64,000 nt of DNA. It comes from Rhizophagus irregularis (taxonomy: Eukaryota). How positions within the stretch are numbered: position 1 is the first letter of the stretch; each line of letters begins with the position of its first letter. Made by a program: the position numbers and the translations under genes. The DNA is taken from the NCBI RefSeq assembly GCF_026210795.1, contig NC_089429.1, forward strand, positions 2,976,001 to 3,040,000, in the 5' to 3' direction. Positions 49,729-64,000 of the stretch are shown here, piece after piece. Under the pieces are notes generated by a model, which was not told the origin of the DNA, searched no databases, and was given only the letters and a program-made list of their open reading frames with translations.

Positions 49729-50822
49729 ATCATCATTATTAGAAGAATCTTCTTGTATCGAAGATTCACTAGTGTAGATATCATCCGTGTTATATTCAGT
49801 TGATTCAGCGACTTGCTCAACTTCAGTAATATCACGAAGTGTGCCTGTTTTTGACCTTTTTTACGTGAAAGAAATACATATTGTTGTTCCTCATACGTAT
49901 CATTATCAGAATATGTATCAATAGATATTGTCATATCTTGTGGTTCTACTAACGATATTGTTGTATCTTGTGGTTCTACTAACGATATTGTTGTATCTCG
50001 TGGTTCTACTAACGATATTGTCGAATCAATCAGTTCTACTAACTCTTGAGACGTTAGAGCCTTATCAGAATTTAATAGTTCTAAAGAATTCGTTTGCTCA
50101 TGTCTCTCCTTTATGCGTGGATCAATCATTTTCCCATTACAATTGCTGCAATAGCACAGAACCTTCGATCTTAGTTTTCTGGTCGTAAATTCGGCATAAG
50201 TTCGTTCAGAAGTTGAAGAACTCAGATTATTATATTCGTTCAAGATATTAGCAGCAATGCGTTTTCTTCTCCCTTTATTCATTTTTTGATAAAAGTTAAA
50301 GTTGTAATATGTTTTTATGTTGAATAAAATTGTAATTATTAATATCAAATTTTTAGTGATGTCAAATTTTTAGTAATATTGTGATTTTTTATATTCCGTT
50401 TTTAAAATGATATTGATGGTATAGTTAAAAAACCATACAAAATTTGAATGAAATAGACAAAAAATTGAGAAAAATTGGACACACAAAGCTGAATGGAAAA
50501 TTGAACGAAAATTAGACTTTCAATTAATGAAACAGTTAAAAATAAAACATACGTACACCATACTATTTAATTTGATTTAACTGTTTCATTAATTGAAAGT
50601 CTAATTTGATGCGAAAGTTTAATTTTGATTGATGAAAAAGTTTAAGTCTGATTTGATCTGTTTAATTAATTGAAAGTCTAATTTGATACAAATGTTTAAG
50701 TGAAATTAATCGTTGATTGTTAAAAGTCTAATTTGATAGTAAAAAATAGATATAAAAGGTGGACCAATTTCTTCGTCCGTACAAAAAATATCTTTCTTTT
50801 TTTTTGAAAAAAAAAACCAATA

Positions 50823-51695
50823 ATGACTCGTAAGAAACCATCGAAACCAAATACTTTTCCACCAAATATTGCTGAGTCGTCAACACCAGCACCACAAAAT
50901 ATTGCTTCTTCAACACCAACACCTCCAAGTATTACCACTTCGTCAACACCAACACCTCCAAATATTACTTCTTTAACACCGGCATCACGATCGTCAATAT
51001 CAGCATCACGAAATATTGCCACTTCGTCAACACTAACACCTTCAAATATTGCTTCTTCAATACCAGCATCACGATCGTCAATATCAGCATCACGAAATAT
51101 TGCCACTTCGTCAACATCAACACCTCCAAATATTGCTTCTTCAACACCAGCATCACGATCATCAACATCAGCATCACAAAATATTGCTACTTTGTCAACA
51201 CCAACACCTCCAAATATTGCTTCTTCAACACCAGCATCACAATCGTCAACATCAGCATCACAAAATATTGCCACTTCGTCAACACTAACACCTCCAAATA
51301 TTGCTTCTTCAACACTAACACCTCCAAATATTGCCACTTCATCAACACCAACACCACAAAATATTGCTTCTTCAACACCAACACCTTCAAATATTGCTTC
51401 TTCAACACCGGCATCACGATCGTTAATATTAGCATCACGTTTTTCAACACGTAATATTACTACTTCGTCAACACTATCAACACGAAATACTAATACTACA
51501 GTTTTTTCATCTCCCTTTAAACTCGTTATTCTGCCAGATATTTCAGCCTCAATAGGTCAAACTCAATCTCAATCTCAACAAAATTTAACGACTTCAGATC
51601 TTATTAAAAGATATCCTAATATTAATGTACCAAAAAGTTATCGTTCACATCACGAAGAATTCAAAAATACTTCTATGATACCTATATACATATAA
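50823..51695 (+). CDS. Ser/Thr/Pro-rich repeat protein (PPNIASSTPT / ASRSSISAS units), probable N-terminus of the CACTA 2 accessory gene
   Basis: 290-aa ORF with ATG, divergent from the CACTA 2 transposase as in CACTA 1. Confidence 0.6.
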   Translation: MTRKKPSKPNTFPPNIAESSTPAPQNIASSTPTPPSITTSSTPTPPNITSLTPASRSSISASRNIATSSTLTPSNIASSIPASRSSISASRNIATSSTSTPPNIASSTPASRSSTSASQNIATLSTPTPPNIASSTPASQSSTSASQNIATSSTLTPPNIASSTLTPPNIATSSTPTPQNIASSTPTPSNIASSTPASRSLILASRFSTRNITTSSTLSTRNTNTTVFSSPFKLVILPDISASIGQTQSQSQQNLTTSDLIKRYPNINVPKSYRSHHEEFKNTSMIPIYI

Positions 51696-52471
51696 AAAAT
51701 TATGCTTTATTATAGATATAATCATGCTAATTAGATAATTTTTAATTGTATTATCATTACCTTATTGTACGAATTGTCATACCAGCTAAATTCTTACAGA
51801 ATAAATCCAATGCTTTTAAACTAATACTTCTCAACACTATAAGAAAATTTAAAAATTCAGTTGAATATTTGAAATTTCGTAAGCCTTTTCCTTGTTCTTC
51901 ACGTTCTGCAGCTTGTAACATAATATAGCAAAGTCCTTTAAATACTGGTTTTTGGTCAAATGTACCTTGAACGGATTTATTAGCAAGTTCCATCCAAAAT
52001 CTTACAGATGAATCCTCAGTATCAAAAAATTCATTTAATTGTTTAATATGACCATTTTTTAGATATGTTAATAATAGATTATTTTCATAATAAAATTTCA
52101 GTGTAAATTTAGTATTTTTTAGATCGGAAACAGCACAATACAAATGATTCAAAAAGTTGAATTAAAATAAATATGGGAACATGATGAACAGGGTACCTAT
52201 AAGTTTTTTTCTTACAATTAACTGATCGAATGCACATTTCTAAATTAAACGTCAGTATTAATAAATTAATAAATGATCATCATACGTTAACTAATTTTTC
52301 TTTTTAACCAAGAACGATCAACTAATGAATTCTGATTCAACGATCATTTGCTGATTAAAATCAGTTATTTCTTCCTTATTGAGCTTTTTGAAATTAAATG
52401 GTAGTTTATTTGGAAACTTATTTGGAAACATTTCTTTTTCAATTACTTCTCGTCATCATACACCTTTATAT

Positions 52472-52849
52472 CACAGGTCAAAAAGTGGAAAATCAGGCAT
52501 CAATCAGTCACCAATCAGGCAGTTTGCTAACTTTTGATCCAGTGATCAGGAAAAAATGAAATATAGCTCATTGGAATCGTCTCAATAAGACGAATCTAAT
52601 GGTAGTAAAATCGCATTTCTAGGATTAATACTTGATGAGAAATTAAGTAAAATATAAAAATAAAAATGTATCATTTATATTTTATTTAATTTTTTATTAA
52701 CTATTAATCCTAGAGATGCGATTTTACTACTATTAGATTCGTCTTATTGAGACGATTCCAATGAGCTATATTTCATTTTTTTCTGATCACTGGATCAAAA
52801 GTTAGCAAACTGCCTGATTGGTGCCTGATTTTTCACTTTTCGATCTGTG
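52472..52849. mobile_element. Palindromic CACAGG MITE, copy 1 (CACTA/CMC-like)
   Basis: CACAGGTCAAAAAGTG..CACTTTTCGATCTGTG; TSD TAT; nearly the whole element is an inverted repeat. Confidence 0.88.
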
Positions 52850-52852
52850 TAT

Positions 52853-53484
52853 TGTTATCCTGTCAACGATTAAAGCCGACTGAAAAACTTTAACGCTTTA
52901 ACAGGTTAACTGGAGTTTAACTTAATAAGAGAGTCTTAAGTTGATCACAAATAATCACGTGAAATAACGTTGAATGTTCAGTTAAAGAAAATAGGTTTTT
53001 ATTAAAATAATATAAGATTTTGAATACGACAAAAATATAGATAATCTCTTGGTTGCGAAATTAACTATCTTGAATTATACTACTGGGAATAATACTCTTT
53101 TCGTATAACTCGAAAACTACAATACAATTCTTAACTAACTAACTGACCTCACTAACTGACCTCCTCCTACTTGGTAAAATCCTATCACTATTTATAATAA
53201 AATAAAAATCAAGAATATTTGATAAAATAAATAAATCAAATATAATAAATAAATAAAATAAATAAAATAAAATAAATAAATAAGATAAAATAAATATATC
53301 AAATAAATAAAATATAACAAATAAAATAAATAAAATTAATAAAATAAATAAATCAAATATATCAAATTTATCAGATTTATCAAATAAATCAAGAAAATCA
53401 AGAAAATCGAAAAAATCAAGAGATCTACAAAATGATCTACAAAATTGATCTACAAAATTACTGCGTCACATTTCTATTTTAACA
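52853..53484 (-). repeat. 3' LTR
   Basis: Matches 61341-61972; one difference seen (53429 A vs 61917 G). Confidence 0.97.
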
Positions 53485-53497
53485 CTTTCCCCCCCTT
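53485..53497 (-). promoter_or_regulatory. Polypurine tract
   Basis: Purine run AAGGGGGGGAAAG on the minus strand directly abutting the 3' LTR. Confidence 0.9.
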
Positions 53498-53520
53498 AAA
53501 GAACGAACTCCTGTGAGTCT

Positions 53521-53907
53521 TTAAATTTCCAATACCAATTGCTTAATTTCATTTTGTTTTAAAGATCTTATCAAATTAACAGTAGTATTAACGGTACGAT
53601 AAATCTGAGTAGGACTTGTTTCAAAAATATAATAAACACGAACAGAAATCCAATAATAATGTTCTGAAACCATTTGTCTAACTTGCTTCTTAGTTAATTC
53701 TTTTTGTTCAATAAGCTGTCCTAAAAAATATGCGAAAACCAGAGCTGGAATTCTTTGTTTTAGTCGTTGAGCTCGTAATAAACATCGGTATGTCACATGA
53801 ATTTTTGTTTTATCATCCATTTCGTTTGAATAAGGTTCGTCTTGTAATTCATGAGAACTATTTCCTTCAATTAATAGGTCTTGTAACACAATTTCGTAAG
53901 GCGTCAT
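53521..53907 (-). CDS. Extra sense ORF (128 aa, helical, unknown function) between integrase and PPT
   Basis: Intact ATG-TAA ORF with a TTCTTATTTAA box about 40 nt upstream. Confidence 0.7.
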   Translation of the reverse strand: MTPYEIVLQDLLIEGNSSHELQDEPYSNEMDDKTKIHVTYRCLLRAQRLKQRIPALVFAYFLGQLIEQKELTKKQVRQMVSEHYYWISVRVYYIFETSPTQIYRTVNTTVNLIRSLKQNEIKQLVLEI

Positions 53908-54348
53908 GATGAGAAAAAGTGAATCATAACAAAATAAAACGCGTCTTTAAATAAGAATTTCATTGTCGCACTTAATTAATTAATATTATTAATGATCAAC
54001 TACTAATTTTGGTAGATCGCGACATTATTGTTTCACTAATTTAGTTTGATTGATTTTACCCTTTAAATTAGTTAATCGCGTATTACTATTTTGAAACATT
54101 TCTCCTTGTTCTAAAAATAGCTTTTTCTTCTCCTTAATTATTTCCACGTGTAATAATTATCAGCTGTTATTGAATTTTTTCACGTCATTTTTTGTTATTT
54201 CGTCTAGAGCACATTTTCTCGCGTCGTGTCTTTTTCTTATTTAAGAACCTAATTTTTCCCTTTCCCTTGTCTTCACTTCTCCGCAAAATCTTTTTGCATA
54301 TATCACCTTTATTAAAACTTACATATTTTTCCTAACATCCTTATTAAA

Positions 54349-55206
54349 ATGGGCTGCCGTCGATCAAAAACATCCCAAAAAAAATCACAAGCTCGCTTTA
54401 AAAACCTAAAGGCTGCTCGTAAATCACAACTTCGTCAACTTGAAGGTGAGTATTGCACGCAAGGTTCTTAAAATGTTTCTTAAACGGGGATAGCCTGCAG
54501 ACGGGGTTTCGACCTTTATCCGGTTCTTGAACAGTTGATTTATCTGGCTCTTTTCGACTTGCAGACGGGGTATTTTTACCTCCAGGATATCTAGTCTTGA
54601 ATGGACTCCCCCTGTAGAACTTTTTTTGGACTATCGATTTATTCACTTAGTCTTTGACTAACTTGGTATTTCTACTTTTTCCATTTAATAACACAAGATC
54701 AAGTTCAAACGTTTCAATCTGAAAATGATTCCTTACAAGCTAAAAATAATTCCTTACAAAAAGAAGTTGCAATTTTGACGGAATTTGGGGTTTTACAGTC
54801 CGTACAAATCCATCAACAAGAAGAAGAAGCGCAATCTAATAATGAACTGTGGGCTATCGCCCAAAAAGAATGTTGGGAGGCCCAAAAAAAGGTCATTCAA
54901 CAAGATGAAGAAATTGTCGGTTTAAAGGGCGAAGTAAAACAACTGAAAAGGGAGAACAAAAGCGCTATGTATAGTACAAAATATTTTGAAAATAAATATT
55001 ATCACGCGATGAGTGTTATACAAAAATATGGTATGATTGTTGTTGACGATAATATGCCCAAATCTCCTTCACCTATACTTTCATCTTCATCTTCATCTTT
55101 TTCCTCTTCTTCTTACGATCAAATATTTGTTGCTGATGGTCCTGATTATATTAATGATAATAATAATAATAATAACGTTGATAATAATATTAATAATGAA
55201 CAATAA
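54349..55206 (+). CDS. Antisense spliced gene, 201 aa, basic region plus leucine zipper (bZIP-like) and a second coiled coil
   Basis: Exons 54349-54445 and 54698-55206; donor GTGAGT, branch GACTAAC, polypyrimidine tract and AAG acceptor; splicing keeps frame: MGCRRSKTSQKKSQARFKNLKAARKSQLRQLE|DQVQTFQSENDSLQAKNNSLQKEVAIL. Confidence 0.7.
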
Positions 55207-55243
55207 TAATTTCCTTATTTTTAATAAAACTTTTGCACTATTC

Positions 55244-56506
55244 TCAAACTATAACTATTGGTTCCAATTTTCGCTCGTGATATTTCTTAAGCCGATTTCC
55301 ATGAATTACATGTTTAACTAATTTCCCATCTAAATTTCTAAGTTTATAAACATTATCATTAAGCACTTCATGAATAAAATAAGGTCCTATCCACTTATTT
55401 TCTAATTTTGCTGAGAAATTATTTTTAAGCCACGTTCGTTCTACTAAGACTTGATCTCCTATTTTCAATTTTTCTGAAATTCCTTGTTGATCATATACTT
55501 GTTTTTGCTTCGCTTGTTCTTTTTCAATTCTTAACGAAACATCATTTCGTTCTTCTTCTAATTCAACTATTAATTGATAAATTCGTCTTTGCATTGGGTC
55601 TTTTTCATTTTGAGGTATTTGTGATGGAATTTTTAAATCAATTGGTAAGGTTGCTTCTCGTCCATAAGTTAAATAGAATGGTGTTTTTCCTGTAGTATTA
55701 TGTTTTTTCGTTCGATATGCCAACAGTACTGCATCGATTAATTGATCCCATTCCTTATTATTATCTTGAACTAATTTTGCAATACATTCACCAATTGTTC
55801 GATTAAATCTTTCAACCATTCCATTTGTTTGAGGTCTATAAGCTGAGGTAAGACGATGTTTAGTTTGATAATTTTCACATAATTCATCAATTAATTTATT
55901 CATAAATGATGTTCCTCTATCAGATAGAATTTCTTGTGGAACTCCATGTCTACAAATAATTTCTTCATAAATAAATTTTGCTACTGTTTCTGCTTTAATA
56001 TTGGATATCGCTCTTGCTTCTGGCCATTTTGTAAAATAATCCATGGCAACAATAATATATCTATTTCCACTACTGGTGATCGGTAATGGTCCTTTAATGT
56101 CAATTCCTATCCTGTGAAATGGTCCCTTAACTGGTATTGGTATCAGTTCTTCTCGCCGATTGGTAGGTCCTCTTCTTTGACAAATATCGCAAGTTTTTAT
56201 ATATTCTTTTACATCTTCTCCTAATTGTGGCCAATAATATCGATCTTTGATTTTTCCAATTATAGCGTCTATTCCTAAATGAGCACCGCTCATATCTGTA
56301 TGAAAGTGATATAAAATAGGTTCTATTTGTTCACGTAGAATTACTTTTCTTATACCATCCTTTGTTTTCCTATATAAAATATTGTTTTGATAAATATATT
56401 GGGTTGAGTTTTTCCGAATTTGGGTTTTCCGTTTATCAGTTATACCATCCATAAAAGTGAGAGTTGTTAAAAATAAAATTAATTCTTTATATAGTTGTTC
56501 ATCCAT
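55244..56506 (-). CDS. int: Integrase (HHCC, DDE, GPY/F motif; no chromodomain) in its own reading frame
   Basis: FH..GAHLG..CDICQR; IGIDIKGPLP; LSDRG; NGMVERFN; KWIGPY; ATG at 56506 overlaps the pol stop. Confidence 0.92.
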   Translation of the reverse strand: MDEQLYKELILFLTTLTFMDGITDKRKTQIRKNSTQYIYQNNILYRKTKDGIRKVILREQIEPILYHFHTDMSGAHLGIDAIIGKIKDRYYWPQLGEDVKEYIKTCDICQRRGPTNRREELIPIPVKGPFHRIGIDIKGPLPITSSGNRYIIVAMDYFTKWPEARAISNIKAETVAKFIYEEIICRHGVPQEILSDRGTSFMNKLIDELCENYQTKHRLTSAYRPQTNGMVERFNRTIGECIAKLVQDNNKEWDQLIDAVLLAYRTKKHNTTGKTPFYLTYGREATLPIDLKIPSQIPQNEKDPMQRRIYQLIVELEEERNDVSLRIEKEQAKQKQVYDQQGISEKLKIGDQVLVERTWLKNNFSAKLENKWIGPYFIHEVLNDNVYKLRNLDGKLVKHVIHGNRLKKYHERKLEPIVIV

Positions 56507-59270
56507 AATCGTTATGTGAGGTTGAAGGATTGGTGTGATTATTGGTTGAGGTTGAGTCAAGACGAGAGAATGCATCAGCATTCGCATGTTTAGTTCCTTT
56601 CCGATATACAATGTCATATTTATATTCTGATAAGGCGATCTTCCATCTTTCCAATCTTTTATTATTATTTTCTGTTGTTGAGTTTAACAACCACTTGAGC
56701 GCTGCATGGTCAGTGATGATGGTGAATTTACTTCCATAAAGATAATGTCGAAAATATTTAACTGCCCATACAATCGCAAGGCATTCCAATTCTGTGATGG
56801 CATAATTCTTTTCCGCTGGTATTAAAGTTCGACTAGCATAGGCAATCACATGCTCTTGATCATCAGTTTTCTGTGCAAGTACTGCGCCTAACCCTATAGT
56901 TGAAGCATCGGTATATAAAAAGAAAGGTTTTGAAAAATCTGGGTATTGTACGATTGGTGCTGTTGTTAATTTATCTCTTAAATTCTCAAATGCCTTCTGT
57001 TGTAAATTTGTCCATTCGTAAGGTGCATCCTTTTTTAATAACTTGTACATTGGATCAGCAACTTTAGCAAAATCTTTGATGAAGCGTCGATAATAAGAGA
57101 ATAATCCTAGGACTCCGCGTAATTCTCTAATATTTTGAGGTTCTGGATAATTAACCATTTTATTAACTTTTTCTGGATCAGGTTTAACACCTTCTTTTCC
57201 TACAACATGTCCTAAAAATTGAAGTTCAGCTGCTGCGAAATAACATTTCTCTGCTTTTAATCTTAGATTCGCCTTACGAATTCTATTTAGAACTTCTTCC
57301 AAATGTTGAATATGATCTTTAAAAGTTTTTGAATATATAATAACATCATCAAGATAAACTAAAACAAACTTCTCCTTTATCCCATGTAAAACTTTATCCA
57401 TAGTTCGCTGAAACGTCGCAGGTGCGTTGCAAAGTCCAAAAGGCATAACCTTGAATTCGTATGTTCCAAATTTTGTGATAAAGGCTGTTTTTTCCTGGTC
57501 TTCCGCCCTTACTTTTATTTGCCAATACCCTGATGCTAAATCTAAAGTGGTGAACCATTGTGCATCTTGTAAAGAATCTAATAATTCATCAATTCTTGGA
57601 AGCGGGTAATTGTCCTTTTTTGTAATATCGTTAAGAGGTTTATAATTAACGCAAAACCTAAGTTTTCCATTCTTCTTTTTCACTACTACTACTGGAAATG
57701 ACCAGGGACTAGTTGAAGGTTTTATTAGCCCTTGTTCTAACATGTCATTAATTTCACTCTCAATAAATTCATTTTCCTTTGGTGCTGTCCTATAAGCTCG
57801 CTTTTTAATAGGTGGCACTTCTTCAGTGATAATAATATGTTCCCCTTCTGGAGTTTGTTTTAACTCTTGCAATGATTTAGCGAATAAGTCTTTATTTTTA
57901 TCCAATAATTGATAAAGTGATTGATATTGATTTTCCTCTAATTCTCCAATCGGAACAACTTTTTCTGGTTCTAATTGAATATTAAATATATTCGAACTTT
58001 CTGATTCTTGCATCACGTGATAAATGTTCCAATCTTCTTGAACTATTTGACAATTATCACAAACTTCTTGTTCTCCTAAGGTTTTACATAGGCATTTTCC
58101 TGGCCCTTTACTATTAATTATACCAGTACTATTGTGACTTTGTTGCTTAATATATTCTAAATATCCTGGGTGATATTCTCGATCATTGATTTGAAAAGTA
58201 CTTTTGGTTATTTCTGCCCTATAAAATGGAACTGCTATGGTGTCTTCTAACTCATCTTCTAATTCTAGTTCATCTACTGGGTCAATGACTGTATATTTTG
58301 TTGGGTCCAATTTTTGAGAACATGTGACAGGAATTTGTTGTTGGATTCCTTCATATTTAATGGTGATGGTATTCTGTCCATAATCAATGTTTGCATTAAC
58401 CTTTTTCAACCACTCATTACCAAGCAGAACATTATATTCAGCTGAGTTTGTAACTATCATATTAATATAGACTTTAATATCCCTCATTTGTACTGGAACT
58501 TGTTGAACCATTCCCAGTGGTGATGACTTTTGTCCCGTTACATCGATGATTTTAATATTCGTAGGTAATTCAATTCCTTTATTGACTTTATCTAGGAATT
58601 TTTTAGAAATAATACAACCTACAGCCCCTGAATCTATTAAGACATTAACAGGTTGTCCATATACAATCGCTTCTCCATACAAAGCTTCTTCGGCTCTTTC
58701 TTTTTGATTAAGATATGCTGGTTCTTCTCTAATCAATTGGTTAAGAATATCAGTATAATAATTAACTAGTGTTGGGGTTAATTCATTATGTTTTGCCATA
58801 AATTGGAATTGTTCAAAAGAAGTAATTGTCCAAGCTCCTTGTTTTTCAGGTTCAGTTCGCTGTAACTCTTGGTAATCAGGTACTTTTGTTAAATAAACAT
58901 CACAATTAAAAGCTGGGTTGTTAAATAAAAATACACATTCATCTTTTTTAATATCTAGTGCTGTTTCTTCTTTTGTTTCTCTAAGTACAGCTTGAAGAGA
59001 AGATTCACGATTTTCTACTTTTCCTCCTGCTACTTGCCATAAATTATACATTGTTTTATTTTTCTGTAGCCGTTTCGATAAATAAATTCCAAAGTTATTA
59101 TATAAAATGTTGAGAACATATGTAGGTCTTTTTAATAGTTGAATTGGCTTTTTAATAGGTCTGATTTCTTCTAATGGGTCCTTCCAATTCACTCTTTTAG
59201 TACTAATTTCGTTAGAGGGTTTTCTAAAATTCGCACTCTCCCCCTCCCGAGGTGCGTTCAGTAGTTTAAA
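56499..59270 (-). CDS. pol: Pol: Nudix hydrolase - aspartic protease - RT - RNase H, entered by -1 frameshift from gag
   Basis: GGKVENRESSLQAVLRETKEETAL; LIDSGA; YPLPRID, MPFGLCNAP, YLDD; TDAS, ELECLA, TDH, NADAFSR; frame open from 59270. Confidence 0.95.
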   Translation of the reverse strand, partial: FKLLNAPREGESANFRKPSNEISTKRVNWKDPLEEIRPIKKPIQLLKRPTYVLNILYNNFGIYLSKRLQKNKTMYNLWQVAGGKVENRESSLQAVLRETKEETALDIKKDECVFLFNNPAFNCDVYLTKVPDYQELQRTEPEKQGAWTITSFEQFQFMAKHNELTPTLVNYYTDILNQLIREEPAYLNQKERAEEALYGEAIVYGQPVNVLIDSGAVGCIISKKFLDKVNKGIELPTNIKIIDVTGQKSSPLGMVQQVPVQMRDIKVYINMIVTNSAEYNVLLGNEWLKKVNANIDYGQNTITIKYEGIQQQIPVTCSQKLDPTKYTVIDPVDELELEDELEDTIAVPFYRAEITKSTFQINDREYHPGYLEYIKQQSHNSTGIINSKGPGKCLCKTLGEQEVCDNCQIVQEDWNIYHVMQESESSNIFNIQLEPEKVVPIGELEENQYQSLYQLLDKNKDLFAKSLQELKQTPEGEHIIITEEVPPIKKRAYRTAPKENEFIESEINDMLEQGLIKPSTSPWSFPVVVVKKKNGKLRFCVNYKPLNDITKKDNYPLPRIDELLDSLQDAQWFTTLDLASGYWQIKVRAEDQEKTAFITKFGTYEFKVMPFGLCNAPATFQRTMDKVLHGIKEKFVLVYLDDVIIYSKTFKDHIQHLEEVLNRIRKANLRLKAEKCYFAAAELQFLGHVVGKEGVKPDPEKVNKMVNYPEPQNIRELRGVLGLFSYYRRFIKDFAKVADPMYKLLKKDAPYEWTNLQQKAFENLRDKLTTAPIVQYPDFSKPFFLYTDASTIGLGAVLAQKTDDQEHVIAYASRTLIPAEKNYAITELECLAIVWAVKYFRHYLYGSKFTIITDHAALKWLLNSTTENNNKRLERWKIALSEYKYDIVYRKGTKHANADAFSRLDSTSTNNHTNPSTSHNDYG
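59215..59270 (-). promoter_or_regulatory. -1 ribosomal frameshift signal (U UUA AAC slippery site plus stem/pseudoknot)
   Basis: TTTAAAC at 59270-59264 in the correct gag phase; CGCAC-CTC/GAG-A-GTGCG stem; loop GAGGG is complementary to downstream CCCTC. Confidence 0.85.
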
Positions 59271-61294
59271 CGACCATTATTTTGGAAACCATTATTGGTT
59301 CCATTATTACTATTATTATCATTTGATGGTGGTGACCTGCAATTCCTAGATACATGTCCTTTTCTTCCACAATTATAACAATCAACATTCCTTAAATCTC
59401 TTCCATTATTGTTGCGATTATTATTATTTTGTTGATTATTTCTTTGACGACAGTTTTTCGCGATATGGCCAGTTCTTCCACAGACATAGCATCCTGAATT
59501 ATTCCTATTTTGATTATTATTATTGTTATTATTTGGAGTAGGATTGGTTGGTTTAGTTTCTGTGCGCATTTGACTTAATGCTGCAGTAATTCCTTCGCTG
59601 ATTTTCCGTTCAACCATCTTTTCTACACTTTCTGGTTGGGAATAACTCATCGAATAGGCAGGTTGATACATGGCTAAGTTGGTTCGAGCAGGGATCATTC
59701 CTCCATTCATATTTTGCAAATAACCTGGCATCATCGAATAAACTGATAGATCCATTCCCATTGAAAAAGCAGTTTCTAATGCTTATGCTTTTTCCATTGC
59801 TTCTTCTACTGTTTGAGGCATAGCAGATTGTACAGGTACAATGAATTCAGGTCTTAAACCTTCAATAAATTCATGGATTTTATCTAATTCCATTCGTCTA
59901 TCTGTGGGATCCACTCTTTTCCATAATTCTGTGATTGCTGCGATATATTCTTCAATTGTTTCTCCTTGTTTTTGTTTCCTATTTCGCAGTTGATGTTTCC
60001 ATTGACTAATCCTGAAGGGATTACAGAAATGATCCTTAAATAAATGCGTAAATGATCGTTGAGGACTATTATCATTCTCCCAAAAAATAATATTTTGACG
60101 ATTGTACCAAGTTAATGCTGTCCCTTTAAGATAGGATGCTACTAAAACAATCGCTCGTTCTTCACTGACTCTATTAGCTACACAAGCTCTACTAAAAGCT
60201 TCAATCCATTCAACAGGATCCTGATTTCCTCCTTTGAAAACTGGAAAGTCGACTAGTCTAGATTCTCTAGGCTCAACTCCTTTTGCGTAAAATTTTTGTG
60301 CCTGTTGAAAAAACTGGAACATGATCTTATTTTGTTCAGCTTCATTAATAGGAGTTTGTTCTTCTGGTTCCTCATCATCTTGTAAATTATTACTAGAAAA
60401 ATCAAGAAGGTCATTCTGTCGAGAAGTTTTCAAGGTTGATGTTCTAATACTAGGAGAACCAAATGAACCCTGAAACGGTTTTACAGTTACAAATGATTTA
60501 AGATTTGATGATGATCCAGTACCAGGATACGGTTTATAAGTTGAATACGGTTCTGTACTCCATTTATTTGAACTACTGCTGGTTTTAGCCTTTTGCTTCT
60601 CTTTCATTTCTTTTTTTGGATCATAAATGTGATCATTTGAAGTATCGTTTATACCTATTTGACTGAAGCTACTATCTTCACCATTTTTGAGTACTGTATC
60701 ATGTGATATTATACTTTCTGCTTCTTCGTTTTCACCTTCTTCATTTCGTTGGTCTTGCCATGCTTTGTCTTGTATACTTGTTGTAGGCTCAGTTCCTCCA
60801 AATTGTTGTTCACTACCTGAACTTTCATTATTTTTATCTGTCTTATTTTGATTCACTTTCCCTGACATCTTACTTGTATTACTGGCTGTATCTGATGATT
60901 GTTCTGAATAATATGCTTCCCAATTATTGAATCGGTCTGTTACTTCCCAATAAAATTGTATCGTTTCTACTAATGTATCAAATGCCGGTATTACTATGTA
61001 CCTAATAGTTTGTACTAACTCCTGAATTAGTTTGTAAGCTTCTTGGATATCTCGCTGTCGCTGTAATTTCCTAAAGATTCGTATAGTATTTTGTGTAAAA
61101 ACACTATCTGGATACCTGGGTGAAATAACGAATTGCCAAAATTCTCTAAATCTGGGATTCTCTAATAATCCTAAATTCTGATCTTCTGGATAGCAATCTG
61201 CACACGATAAATCTTCAATTAAATCTTGTTTTCCCTGGTTATGATCTTCTATATGCTGAAAAATCTGTTGTAAATACTGAAATTCCTTATTCAT
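59258..61294 (-). CDS. gag: Gag (retrotransposon capsid domain plus two CCHC knuckles) with one in-frame TAA at 59783-59785
   Basis: FKGGNQDPVEWI..YLKGTALTWY..QKQGETIEEY..FIEGLRP; CYVCGRTGHIAKNC; CYNCGRKGHVSRNC; the two ORFs share a frame. Confidence 0.92.
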
Positions 61295-61319
61295 TCACAA
61301 TTACTATTTTTCTTTAGTT

Positions 61320-61337
61320 TCCACCCAACTCGCACCA
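61320..61337 (-). promoter_or_regulatory. Primer-binding site, probably tRNA-Phe
   Basis: TGGTGCGAGTTGGGTGGA 3 nt inside the 5' LTR; its complement CCACCCAACTCGCACCA resembles the yeast tRNA-Phe 3' end CCACAGAAUUCGCACCA. Confidence 0.75.
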
Positions 61338-61340
61338 AAT

Positions 61341-61972
61341 TGTTATCCTGTCAACGATTAAAGCCGACTGAAAAACTTTAACGCTTTAACAGGTTAACTG
61401 GAGTTTAACTTAATAAGAGAGTCTTAAGTTGATCACAAATAATCACGTGAAATAACGTTGAATGTTCAGTTAAAGAAAATAGGTTTTTATTAAAATAATA
61501 TAAGATTTTGAATACGACAAAAATATAGATAATCTCTTGGTTGCGAAATTAACTATCTTGAATTATACTACTGGGAATAATACTCTTTTCGTATAACTCG
61601 AAAACTACAATACAATTCTTAACTAACTAACTGACCTCACTAACTGACCTCCTCCTACTTGGTAAAATCCTATCACTATTTATAATAAAATAAAAATCAA
61701 GAATATTTGATAAAATAAATAAATCAAATATAATAAATAAATAAAATAAATAAAATAAAATAAATAAATAAGATAAAATAAATATATCAAATAAATAAAA
61801 TATAACAAATAAAATAAATAAAATTAATAAAATAAATAAATCAAATATATCAAATTTATCAGATTTATCAAATAAATCAAGAAAATCAAGAAAATCGAAA
61901 AAATCAAGAGATCTACGAAATGATCTACAAAATTGATCTACAAAATTACTGCGTCACATTTCTATTTTAACA
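61341..61972 (-). repeat. 5' LTR
   Basis: 632-bp match to 52853-53484. Confidence 0.97.
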
Positions 61973-62788
61973 GTATGTAGCTGGTGTTTGATTAATATAA
62001 GTAACAATTTGTTCAGAATGAAATCCAGGACATGGTTTATTTGAAAATGATGGCGGTGGTGGCGGTAATGAATATTCTAAGTATTCTCTTACTTTTTTAG
62101 GATTAGGTAAGACAAAAAACAAACCAGGTAAACCAAGTTGTCATTTTTGATTATTTATTTTACATCTTAAGTTTCTAGAATGTTTGTTAAGCCTTTTTAC
62201 ATCATAGTCATTATCAAGAATAACCTTTTGTCCACATTTGCAAAATACTTCACATTTATTAATAATAGCTGCACAAAATTTATTATCACTTAAGCGAGTT
62301 CAAGTATGCTTCCACTTCAACATTATAAAAGTAAAGTTTTAAAAGTTTTTGTAAAAAAAACACGTATTTAGTTTTAAAATATATACTTTTGATCATGAGA
62401 AAGGGTGAAAAAAAATATTAAAACAGGATAAATTTGCTAAAACGAATAATATGACTATGAGAAAATCCATTTAATTCGCCAAAACATATAATATGACTAT
62501 GAGAAAATTCATATAATTCGCCAAAACTAAAAATTATGACTACCCCTTAAATTTCATGAATTCACCAAAACTTAAATTTGGACATTAAATTAAATTTGAG
62601 TTAATTTGCTAAAACTTAAATGTGACCTGTATATGTATTTTCTGGGGTCCTACCAGTGGTGATCGTCATTATATGTAAAATATCTTTTGAATTTCAAAAA
62701 TTTTTGACTGAGATATTATTCTAATTATAATATAAAATATCATTACTATACGTAAATTTATGGGTAGAACAAGTTTGCCTTAGATTAT

Positions 62789-63229
62789 CACAGGTCGAAA
62801 AGTGAAAAATCAGGCACCAATCAGTCACCAATCAGGTAGCTGATTGGTGACTGATTGGCATTTTCGCCAAATACAGTCACCAATCGGGCAGTTTGCTAAC
62901 TTTTGATCCAGTGATCAGAAAAAGTTGAAATATAGCTCATTGGAATCGTCTCAACAGGACGAATCTAATGGTAGTAAAATCGCATTTCTAGGATTAATAC
63001 TTGATGAGAAATTAAGTAAAATATAAAAATAAAAATGTATCATTTATATTTTATTTAATTTTTTATTAACTATTAATCCTAGAGATGCGATTTTACTATC
63101 ATTAGATTCGTCTTGTTGAGACAATTCCAATGAGCTATATTTCATTTTTTTCTGATCACTGGATCAAAAGTTAGCAAACTGCCTGATTGGTACTTGATTG
63201 ATACCTGATTTTTCACTTTTCGACCTGTG
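62789..63229. mobile_element. Palindromic CACAGG MITE, copy 2
   Basis: CACAGGTCGAAAAGTG..CACTTTTCGACCTGTG; TSD TAT at 62786-62788 and 63230-63232; highly similar to copy 1. Confidence 0.9.
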
Positions 63230-64000
63230 TATAAAAGCTGTACTTTAGATAGTTTTTGAAAAAAATAGGAAAGTTTGATTTTATAAGCAAAATACAATTT
63301 TTTGTTTTAAAAAAGATTTTTTTTAATCAAATTTTCAAAATTTTAGTATGATTAGTATTTAACTCAGGTTTGTTTTACACTGAAGACCTCTGATTCTCTT
63401 ATAAGAGTTACTACATCGAATCAGGCTTCATGAATAAGAGTTAGTATTATGTGATAATAGTAATATAAAAAACGTGGTTAACAAAAATAAAATACAATTT
63501 CAAATCAGAATTCAATTTATTAAAATAAATTAAATAGGACCTATATTTATACAAAATATAGTAATACAAAATATCCTTATTTCAAGAACTATGATATAAT
63601 AAATGACATTATATATCCAGTTTATACTCGTATAATAGGAGTATTGTCCATCATCTATGTATAATATCTTTATATAGATCGTATCCTTGATCAGTGACCT
63701 GAAGTAATAGATTTGCATTACTGGCTAATCCTTAATTCTATTCCTTTAATTCTATAATTCCTACTCTACCTACAACTTCTGTTTTTCATTAATTTATGTT
63801 TGATTTCTGCTGGTTACAACACATTTATTATTTAAATTGAAATTTTTGAAAAAAAATTTATGATGTGTTTTTTAATTCTGGCCAAAATTATAATTTTCAG
63901 CCAGAATTAAGTGATGTGGTGACAATAAATACTGGTGATATTTAGTAATACCTTTTATTTTTTATTTAAACAAAACGTTGACTAACGTTTCAATTTTTAC

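Follow-up and report, generated by a model that had tools for sequence, protein, structure and literature searches.

A probable spliced antisense gene with basic-zipper architecture in a Ty3/Gypsy retrotransposon of Rhizophagus irregularis

The window analysed here (64,000 nt of Rhizophagus irregularis contig NC_089429.1, positions 2,976,001 to 3,040,000 of the forward strand) contains a Ty3/Gypsy element on the minus strand, spanning 52853-61972 in window coordinates, and inside it lies the antisense zipper gene that is the subject of this study. The element is bounded by two LTRs of 632 nt on the minus strand, the 3' LTR (52853..53484, TG...CA) and the 5' LTR (61341..61972). A polypurine tract (53485-53497) adjoins the former, and a TGG stretch resembling a primer-binding site (61337-61321) adjoins the latter. 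Because the LTRs differ at 1 of 632 bases and a 4-bp target duplication, GTAT, lies outside both of them, the insertion is very young. Pfam assigns to the minus strand a gag gene with a Ty3 capsid and two zinc knuckles (59258..61294), a pol frame with NUDIX, aspartic protease, RT and RNase H domains (56499..59276), and an integrase frame with H2C2, rve and SH3-like domains (55244..56683), in that domain order. The interval between integrase and the 3' LTR holds two extra genes, arranged head to head and 441 nt apart, one of which is the antisense gene, on the strand opposite to gag-pol.

This gene, on the plus strand, is made of two exons. Exon 1 (54349..54445) opens with the ATG at 54349, and its 97 nt correspond to 32 codons plus one base; it is followed by a GT-AG intron of 252 nt in phase 1 (54446..54697) and by exon 2 (54698..55206), which encodes a GCN4-like zipper, an extended heptad helix and a disordered tail. 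With the donor AG|GTGAGT at 54445/54446 and the acceptor AG that ends at 54697, the join yields 201 amino acids and a stop at 55206. The initial annotation had proposed a 97-nt exon joined in frame through canonical signals; the exon and its donor stand, and the acceptor is corrected by one nucleotide, an acceptor at 54698 shifting the frame. An in-frame join alone would be little proof, because 68 GT-AG pairs open the frame from the ATG at 54349 to the stop at 55206, 13 of them with the 54445 donor. Four grounds speak for the 54445/54698 pair: the uniqueness of the donor (AG|GTRAGT occurs a single time across the whole element, at exon 1), the identity of the product to a deposited protein (P0001), a contig of run X5, and the exon 1 of a second subfamily of relatives, the last two being treated below. 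A search with the exon-2 protein retrieved P0001; its N-terminal 32 residues are those of exon 1 and its C-terminal 168 those of exon 2. The whole product is identical to this protein, R. irregularis GLOIN_2v1787626, which is deposited in three records and bears the UniRef name "BZIP domain-containing protein"; these records are gene models and not proof of splicing. The stop-free frame of exon 2 (182 codons) was matched in 1 of 2000 shuffles of 53908-55243. Within the intron, a branch-like TTAAT and a TTGAC lie 12 nt and 43 nt upstream of the AG, an 11-nt repeat occurs twice (54496 and 54560), and folding compared with shuffles gave no signal on either strand (z -0.19 and -0.33). A small internal exon at about 54534-54569 appears in several gene models. 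Downstream, the antisense gene and integrase stand tail to tail, 37 nt apart, and between their stops AATAAA (55223..55228, plus strand) is a candidate poly(A) signal that is a consensus match only.

Eight of the 24 indexed sequencing runs were examined, four of raw reads and four of contigs, with no run recorded as RNA. The join across 54445/54698 that the initial annotation implied was found in one contig of X5 and in none of the other seven runs. Over 3 kb, the raw-read runs (the poly(A) runs X19-X21, and X22) gave 24, 35, 25 and 1 reads, mostly 90-95% alike, and no splice joint was seen at this sparse coverage; X19 and X21 hold a few unspliced reads crossing the donor, and their libraries look unstranded. 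No splice join was present in the contig runs X15, X6 and X1. In X5 (whose status as RNA is a guess), a contig of depth 4.2, with 30 letters on its short side, links 54443 to 54697 through a single interposed G. Unspliced contigs of X15, X5 and X1 carry the synonymous variant A54444G; because this variant is known, and because G is the last base of exon 1 as well as of the intron, the contig corresponds to an exact 54446-54697 splice in another copy of the element. The evidence from X5 is direct, though thin. A GT-AG join in plus orientation implies a transcript antisense to the genomic RNA. Introns on the antisense strand are not spliced from genomic RNA and so survive retrotransposition.

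The product of exon 1 is a basic helix (11 K/R and 1 acidic residue), straight after which runs a leucine heptad with d positions L31-F38-L45-L52-L59 and Asn at 42 and 49, exactly as initially annotated. AlphaFold2 (27 sequences) predicts one helix from residue 7 to 142 (136 residues) and then a disordered, low-complexity tail rich in Ser and Asn; high confidence for a lone helix carries little information in such models. The heptad register is constant, the same one scoring highest in 7 of the 9 windows with starts at residues 11-123. The zipper extends to about residue 60 and the heptad helix goes on to 142, with a conserved W84/W92-x2-Q95. Compared by eye with the GCN4 chain of the PDB alignment, the a/d series of the zipper (L28, L31, V35, F38, N42, L45, N49, L52) fits well, central a-position Asn included. 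With bZIP factors (GCN4, Fos/Jun, C/EBP; PF00170) the protein shares a basic helix that runs into a heptad zipper with a central a-position Asn; it differs from them in being without the invariant Asn and Arg and in a helix about twice as long.

The bZIP signature is an invariant N-x7-R/K-x9-L in the basic region. Here, the basic segment is without N-x7-R/K-x9-L-x6-L in 26 of 26 models, six of which match farther downstream (residues 39-60), and the non-canonical spacing noted at the outset is thereby borne out. P0001 scores 20.4 bits with bZIP_1 against a Pfam cut-off of 27.6, exon 1 contributing just 1.5 bits (from 18.9 to 20.4), and none of the 15 relatives scanned reached the curated cut-off of bZIP_1 or bZIP_2 (best, 22.8). 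DivIC was matched as often as bZIP_1 (10 of 32 members each); weak PDB matches were bZIPs in 13 of 18 cases, all with E >= 0.1, and the family profile matches C/EBP chains and other coiled coils equally weakly. Judged by its sequence, the product fails bZIP family membership. In the zipper register, the positions of the GCN4 contacts Asn, Ala, Ala, Ser and Arg are occupied by Ser13, Arg16, Phe17, Leu20 and Lys21, all five common to both subfamilies of relatives; this register match is weak, because complete sharing of the five-position pattern also occurs at 3 more of the 22 helix offsets. Two other registers were rejected. In a GCN4-like N19-x2-AA register, 2 of 18 models have Asn at residue 19 and Gln replaces Arg; for a Yap-like one, Q10/Q14/F17 was set against the Yap signature, and subfamily B has Arg10, Arg14 and Gln18.

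Searches by word and by profile yielded 24 of 93 candidates, 16 representatives and 61 of 1826 candidates. The 61 relatives form two main subfamilies, and all the named ones belong to R. irregularis or R. diaphanus; no host bZIP stood among the 61 and 16 profile matches, and no ascomycete protein was returned by the homolog searches. Subfamily B (P0074, P0085-P0107) is 33-37% identical to the window protein, keeps the frame, and aligns to P0001 with two gaps of 7 residues each. The conservation of exons and splice sites expected of a real gene holds in part: the 32-codon exon 1 and the donor are kept in subfamily B, whose models also end exon 1 after codon 32 and whose reads and contigs meet the window sequence at 54431 and continue across the donor (as loose ends). 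Between subfamilies, identity is 21/32 in exon 1, 3/21 in the zipper, 20/50 in the mid-helix and 6/33 in the distal helix. Among close copies, synonymous changes account for 8 of the 16 variants listed in the antisense gene, against 5.1 expected (P 0.10), for 12 of the 20 listed in the second ORF (P 0.001) and for 12 of the 17 listed in integrase (P 1e-5); none of the 16 in the antisense gene is a stop. These comparisons point to a constraint on the antisense gene that is clear at depth and weak at short range, and the conservation of exon 1 could partly reflect an overlapping DNA element. At 54431-54660, the intron DNA is alignable in subfamily B and the adjoining exon-1 DNA is not (again as loose ends), and this intron region may hide a cis element.

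Further copies of subfamily A have the same layout: a diverged contig (X5 record 22), which shows 22 differences, spans exon 2 and continues into integrase, the consecutive locus tags RhiirA4_430054 and RhiirA4_430055 are the two extra genes, and the models P0019 (R. diaphanus) and P0041 start in a frame overlapping the second ORF. The original proposal of a spliced antisense accessory gene with a bZIP-like architecture is thus supported, with the gene kept in other copies, and we consider it very probable that it is a real protein-coding accessory gene. None of 585 pattern matches for P0001 in metagenome contigs was confirmed, nor were any of the 131 and 18 matches for A1 and A2 in viral contigs; an ESM Atlas search with the protein reached a best score of 0.85, which provides leads only. 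The donor-site pattern at two metagenome loci was attributed to chance, L001 resembling a copia-type fragment from a plant and L002 an outer-membrane operon from a bacterium.

The C-termini of subfamily B (P0074, P0085-P0107, P0111) present a feature of their own, since EEVD is the terminal motif of 21 of the 29 proteins and another 3 finish with EELD, EKLD or EEVN. From its sequence, this end resembles the C-terminus of cytosolic Hsp70/Hsp90 and is possibly a chaperone mimic; no description of an EEVD-bearing transposon protein was found in the literature searched, which lay largely outside subscription journals.

The second extra ORF (53521..53907, minus strand) is in the sense of the element and encodes an all-helical protein of 128 amino acids with 25 relatives, down to 47% identity. 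The pattern of its substitutions suggests clear purifying selection. It matched no Pfam family and, with 1 of 5 structure models confident, had no Foldseek match at E 0.001; its best VIA Z was 5.0, covering 75 residues. In X19-X21 this ORF drew the largest number of poly(A) reads, from few reads overall. The spacer between the two extra genes (53908..54348, 441 nt) is a candidate bidirectional internal promoter. Its CpG observed/expected ratio is 1.80, and it carries one CACGTG and four CGCG, the latter against 0.58 expected (3 of 500 simulations reach 4, in one of 18 motif-region tests). This CpG-rich spacer is likely the shared promoter of both genes, and the antisense ATG lies 865 nt from the LTR, on the far side of the second ORF.

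Based on these results, we lean tentatively, at somewhat less than an even chance, towards a protein that acts as a coiled-coil dimer with a conserved basic helix, enters the nucleus, binds nucleic acid and regulates or assists its own element. The 441-nt spacer would supply a bidirectional promoter for antisense transcription, one that also serves the second ORF. The predicted single helix of residues 7-142, with its constant heptad register, would form a parallel homodimer through the GCN4-like zipper, and the conserved basic N-terminal helix would serve nuclear import and nucleic-acid binding; from its conservation, we infer that this helix may be the working end of the protein. Because the contact positions hold Ser13/Arg16/Phe17/Leu20/Lys21, canonical AP-1/CRE sites would not be read. 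The likeliest target would be the promoter DNA of the element itself or its genomic RNA, and the outcome would be regulation of, or help to, the element's own expression. A bolder form of the proposal, which we regard as unlikely, is a bZIP-shaped regulator with a rewritten recognition helix, in a divergent module of two genes, to which one subfamily adds an EEVD chaperone-mimic tail. If it were true, the regulator and the two-gene module would be a retrotransposon counterpart of HBZ, Tax or Rev of complex retroviruses, and the EEVD tail would recruit or jam host co-chaperones.

The initial annotation had suggested a dominant-negative partner of host bZIPs by analogy with HBZ of HTLV-1. In a decoy of this type, the zipper would pair with host bZIP proteins and the odd basic region would block DNA binding and so tune LTR activity. 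HBZ blocks CREB-2 through such pairing, according to the available text of PMC10186651. The GCN4-like a/d series, the missing canonical contact residues, and ACGT-core sites in the LTR and the spacer would all suit this role. Conservation argues against it, because a decoy expects a conserved zipper and a dispensable basic region and the reverse is seen, the zipper being the least conserved segment between subfamilies (3/21, against 21/32 for the basic exon). Moreover, some copies appear to be without part of the zipper (several gene models, and X1 through a 42-nt skip, the letters between being not known), AP-1 and Yap-type sites are absent from the LTR, the spacer and the intron, and the helix goes about 80 residues past the zipper. 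The dominant-negative role is not supported by our results and we hold it to be quite unlikely. It is most improbable that the element has captured a host bZIP transcription factor that still binds canonical sites: the UniRef name and an intron that could be the relic of DNA-level capture are consistent with this, but the score below the Pfam cut-off, to which exon 1 adds 1.5 bits, the lack of a host bZIP among the 61 and 16 profile matches, and the sole Asn, residue 19, which is Asn in 2 of 18 models, are not.

Two further explanations were weighed. A long coiled coil with a nuclear-import signal might tether or titrate host proteins, as a scaffold or an antagonist of host defence, and in subfamily B the C-terminal EEVD would, as part of the same proposal, engage Hsp70/Hsp90 co-chaperones. 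This agrees with the 136-residue helix, with Pfam matches to generic coiled coils (DivIC equalling bZIP_1 in frequency), with the conserved mid-helix W84/W92/Q95 and with the EEVD end of 21 of the 29 subfamily-B proteins; in the part of PMC9346034 available, the EEVD of cytosolic Hsp70 is bound by TPR and class B J-domain co-chaperones. However, the subfamily of the window is without EEVD, the 21 cases are not independent, the B proteins being closely related, and a Tyr or Phe, which hinders TPR binding and not class B J-protein binding (same part of PMC9346034), precedes EEVD in most of them. A scaffold also leaves the top conservation of the basic helix unexplained, and we think it unlikely. 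It is rather improbable, too, that the transcript itself acts as antisense RNA, forming dsRNA with the genomic RNA, while the protein is dispensable or decaying. The tail-to-tail arrangement with integrase, the weak synonymous excess among close copies (8 of the 16 variants listed), the alignable intron DNA beside non-alignable exon-1 DNA in subfamily B (loose ends), and the small RNAs that Gypsy elements yield in R. irregularis (from the accessible text of PMC8647823) would be in keeping with it. The frame, the exon length, the heptad-sized gaps and the invariant residues are nevertheless kept at 35% protein identity, and the 16 listed variants include no stop. The nucleic-acid-binding dimer that we favour would take the conserved basic helix as its functional part.

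Extra ORFs lying antisense, between pol and the 3' LTR, have been described in Grande (gene23), RIRE2, Retand and the fungal Boty, and it is an open question what antisense accessory genes of this kind do in LTR retrotransposons (PMC7264820, PMC11963269, both in the text available). This aORF-3R class of plant and fungal Ty3/Gypsy elements is a closer precedent than HBZ (PMC7264820, in part), and the Rhizophagus gene fits the class by position and conservation (61 relatives, linkage in other copies). As far as the accessible sections of PMC7264820 and PMC11963269 describe it, the likeness to maize Grande gene23, rice RIRE2 and Retand covers position, orientation and occurrence in many copies. 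It also covers a probable internal promoter of its own and a probable nuclear product, both predicted on the Rhizophagus side; GENE23 is nuclear and has its own promoter (PMC7264820). In contrast to the aORF-3R genes as portrayed there, the Rhizophagus gene sits in a Glomeromycotan host, is spliced, has a basic-zipper architecture, is paired head to head with a sense-strand second ORF, and encodes a protein without TRP28, SMC or any other Pfam family at cut-off. A second fungal case is brtn, the extra antisense gene of Boty-like elements of Botrytis cinerea and Sclerotinia (PMC8365987, PMC4227169, PMC7264820, each in part), Boty being an ascomycete element that bears a chromodomain (available text of PMC4227169). 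Both are fungal Ty3/Gypsy elements with an additional antisense gene; unlike Boty, the Rhizophagus element has a NUDIX domain and no chromodomain match in Pfam, brtn being compared by its partial published description only. With HBZ, which is antisense, spliced and of about 200 amino acids with a basic region and a leucine zipper, the outline is shared (PMC10186651, available portion). According to the same portion, hbz is driven from the 3' LTR, and HBZ has an N-terminal activation domain and a C-terminal bZIP, whereas the basic-zipper part of the Rhizophagus protein is N-terminal (residues 1-60), its tail is disordered and its promoter is probably internal. Homology between the two proteins was neither found nor expected; the Rhizophagus protein fails membership of the HBZ type, and the likeness would be convergent if anything.

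Antisense accessory genes of Gypsy elements are already known as a kind (brtn, gene23, Retand); the novelty here lies in the protein family and the host lineage, together with the rewritten basic helix and the cassette of two genes. No description of the antisense zipper gene was found in the literature searched (largely outside subscription journals and apart from supplements), nor any mention there of six accessions, and the main text of the papers on transposons of these fungi, in the portions available, does not use the word "antisense". The Gypsy family may be represented in the TE libraries supplementary to PMC8647823, PMC11075540 and PMC11952901. The gene is of interest in that a well-studied fungus carries it intact, in an element of very recent insertion, and it has a simple two-part anatomy, with two subfamilies that show which residues matter. 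Furthermore, an R. irregularis entry annotated as bZIP turns out to be cargo of a transposon, a point of relevance to counts of transcription factors in mycorrhizal fungi.

The host element has several features of its own. A NUDIX hydrolase domain lies at about 58917-59126 (minus strand), at the start of pol and ahead of the protease, with 37.8 bits, over the Pfam cut-off; no description of a NUDIX-bearing Gypsy element was found in the literature searched, again mostly other than subscription journals and excluding supplements. Rfam gave no credible match over 52800-62000. Despite the near-identical LTRs, gag has an in-frame stop at 59783-59785 (minus strand), between the capsid and the zinc knuckles, which is either read through or marks a defective copy mobilised in trans. 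In the gag/pol overlap, TTTAAAC at 59264-59270 (minus strand), which we take to be a classic -1 frameshift slippery site, is followed by a G-rich stretch. Integrase and RT-RNase H are in different frames with an overlap of 185 nt (56499-56683, minus strand), and this frame change is either a family feature or a lesion. A palindromic element whose arms measure about 150 nt is present in two copies, 97% identical (52459-52850 and 62789-63242), on either side of the Gypsy element, which sits at the edge of one of them, its insertion point. Finally, the frame 50808-51695 (plus strand) contains 84-nt and 30/33-nt tandem repeats that encode a Ser/Thr/Pro-rich stretch.
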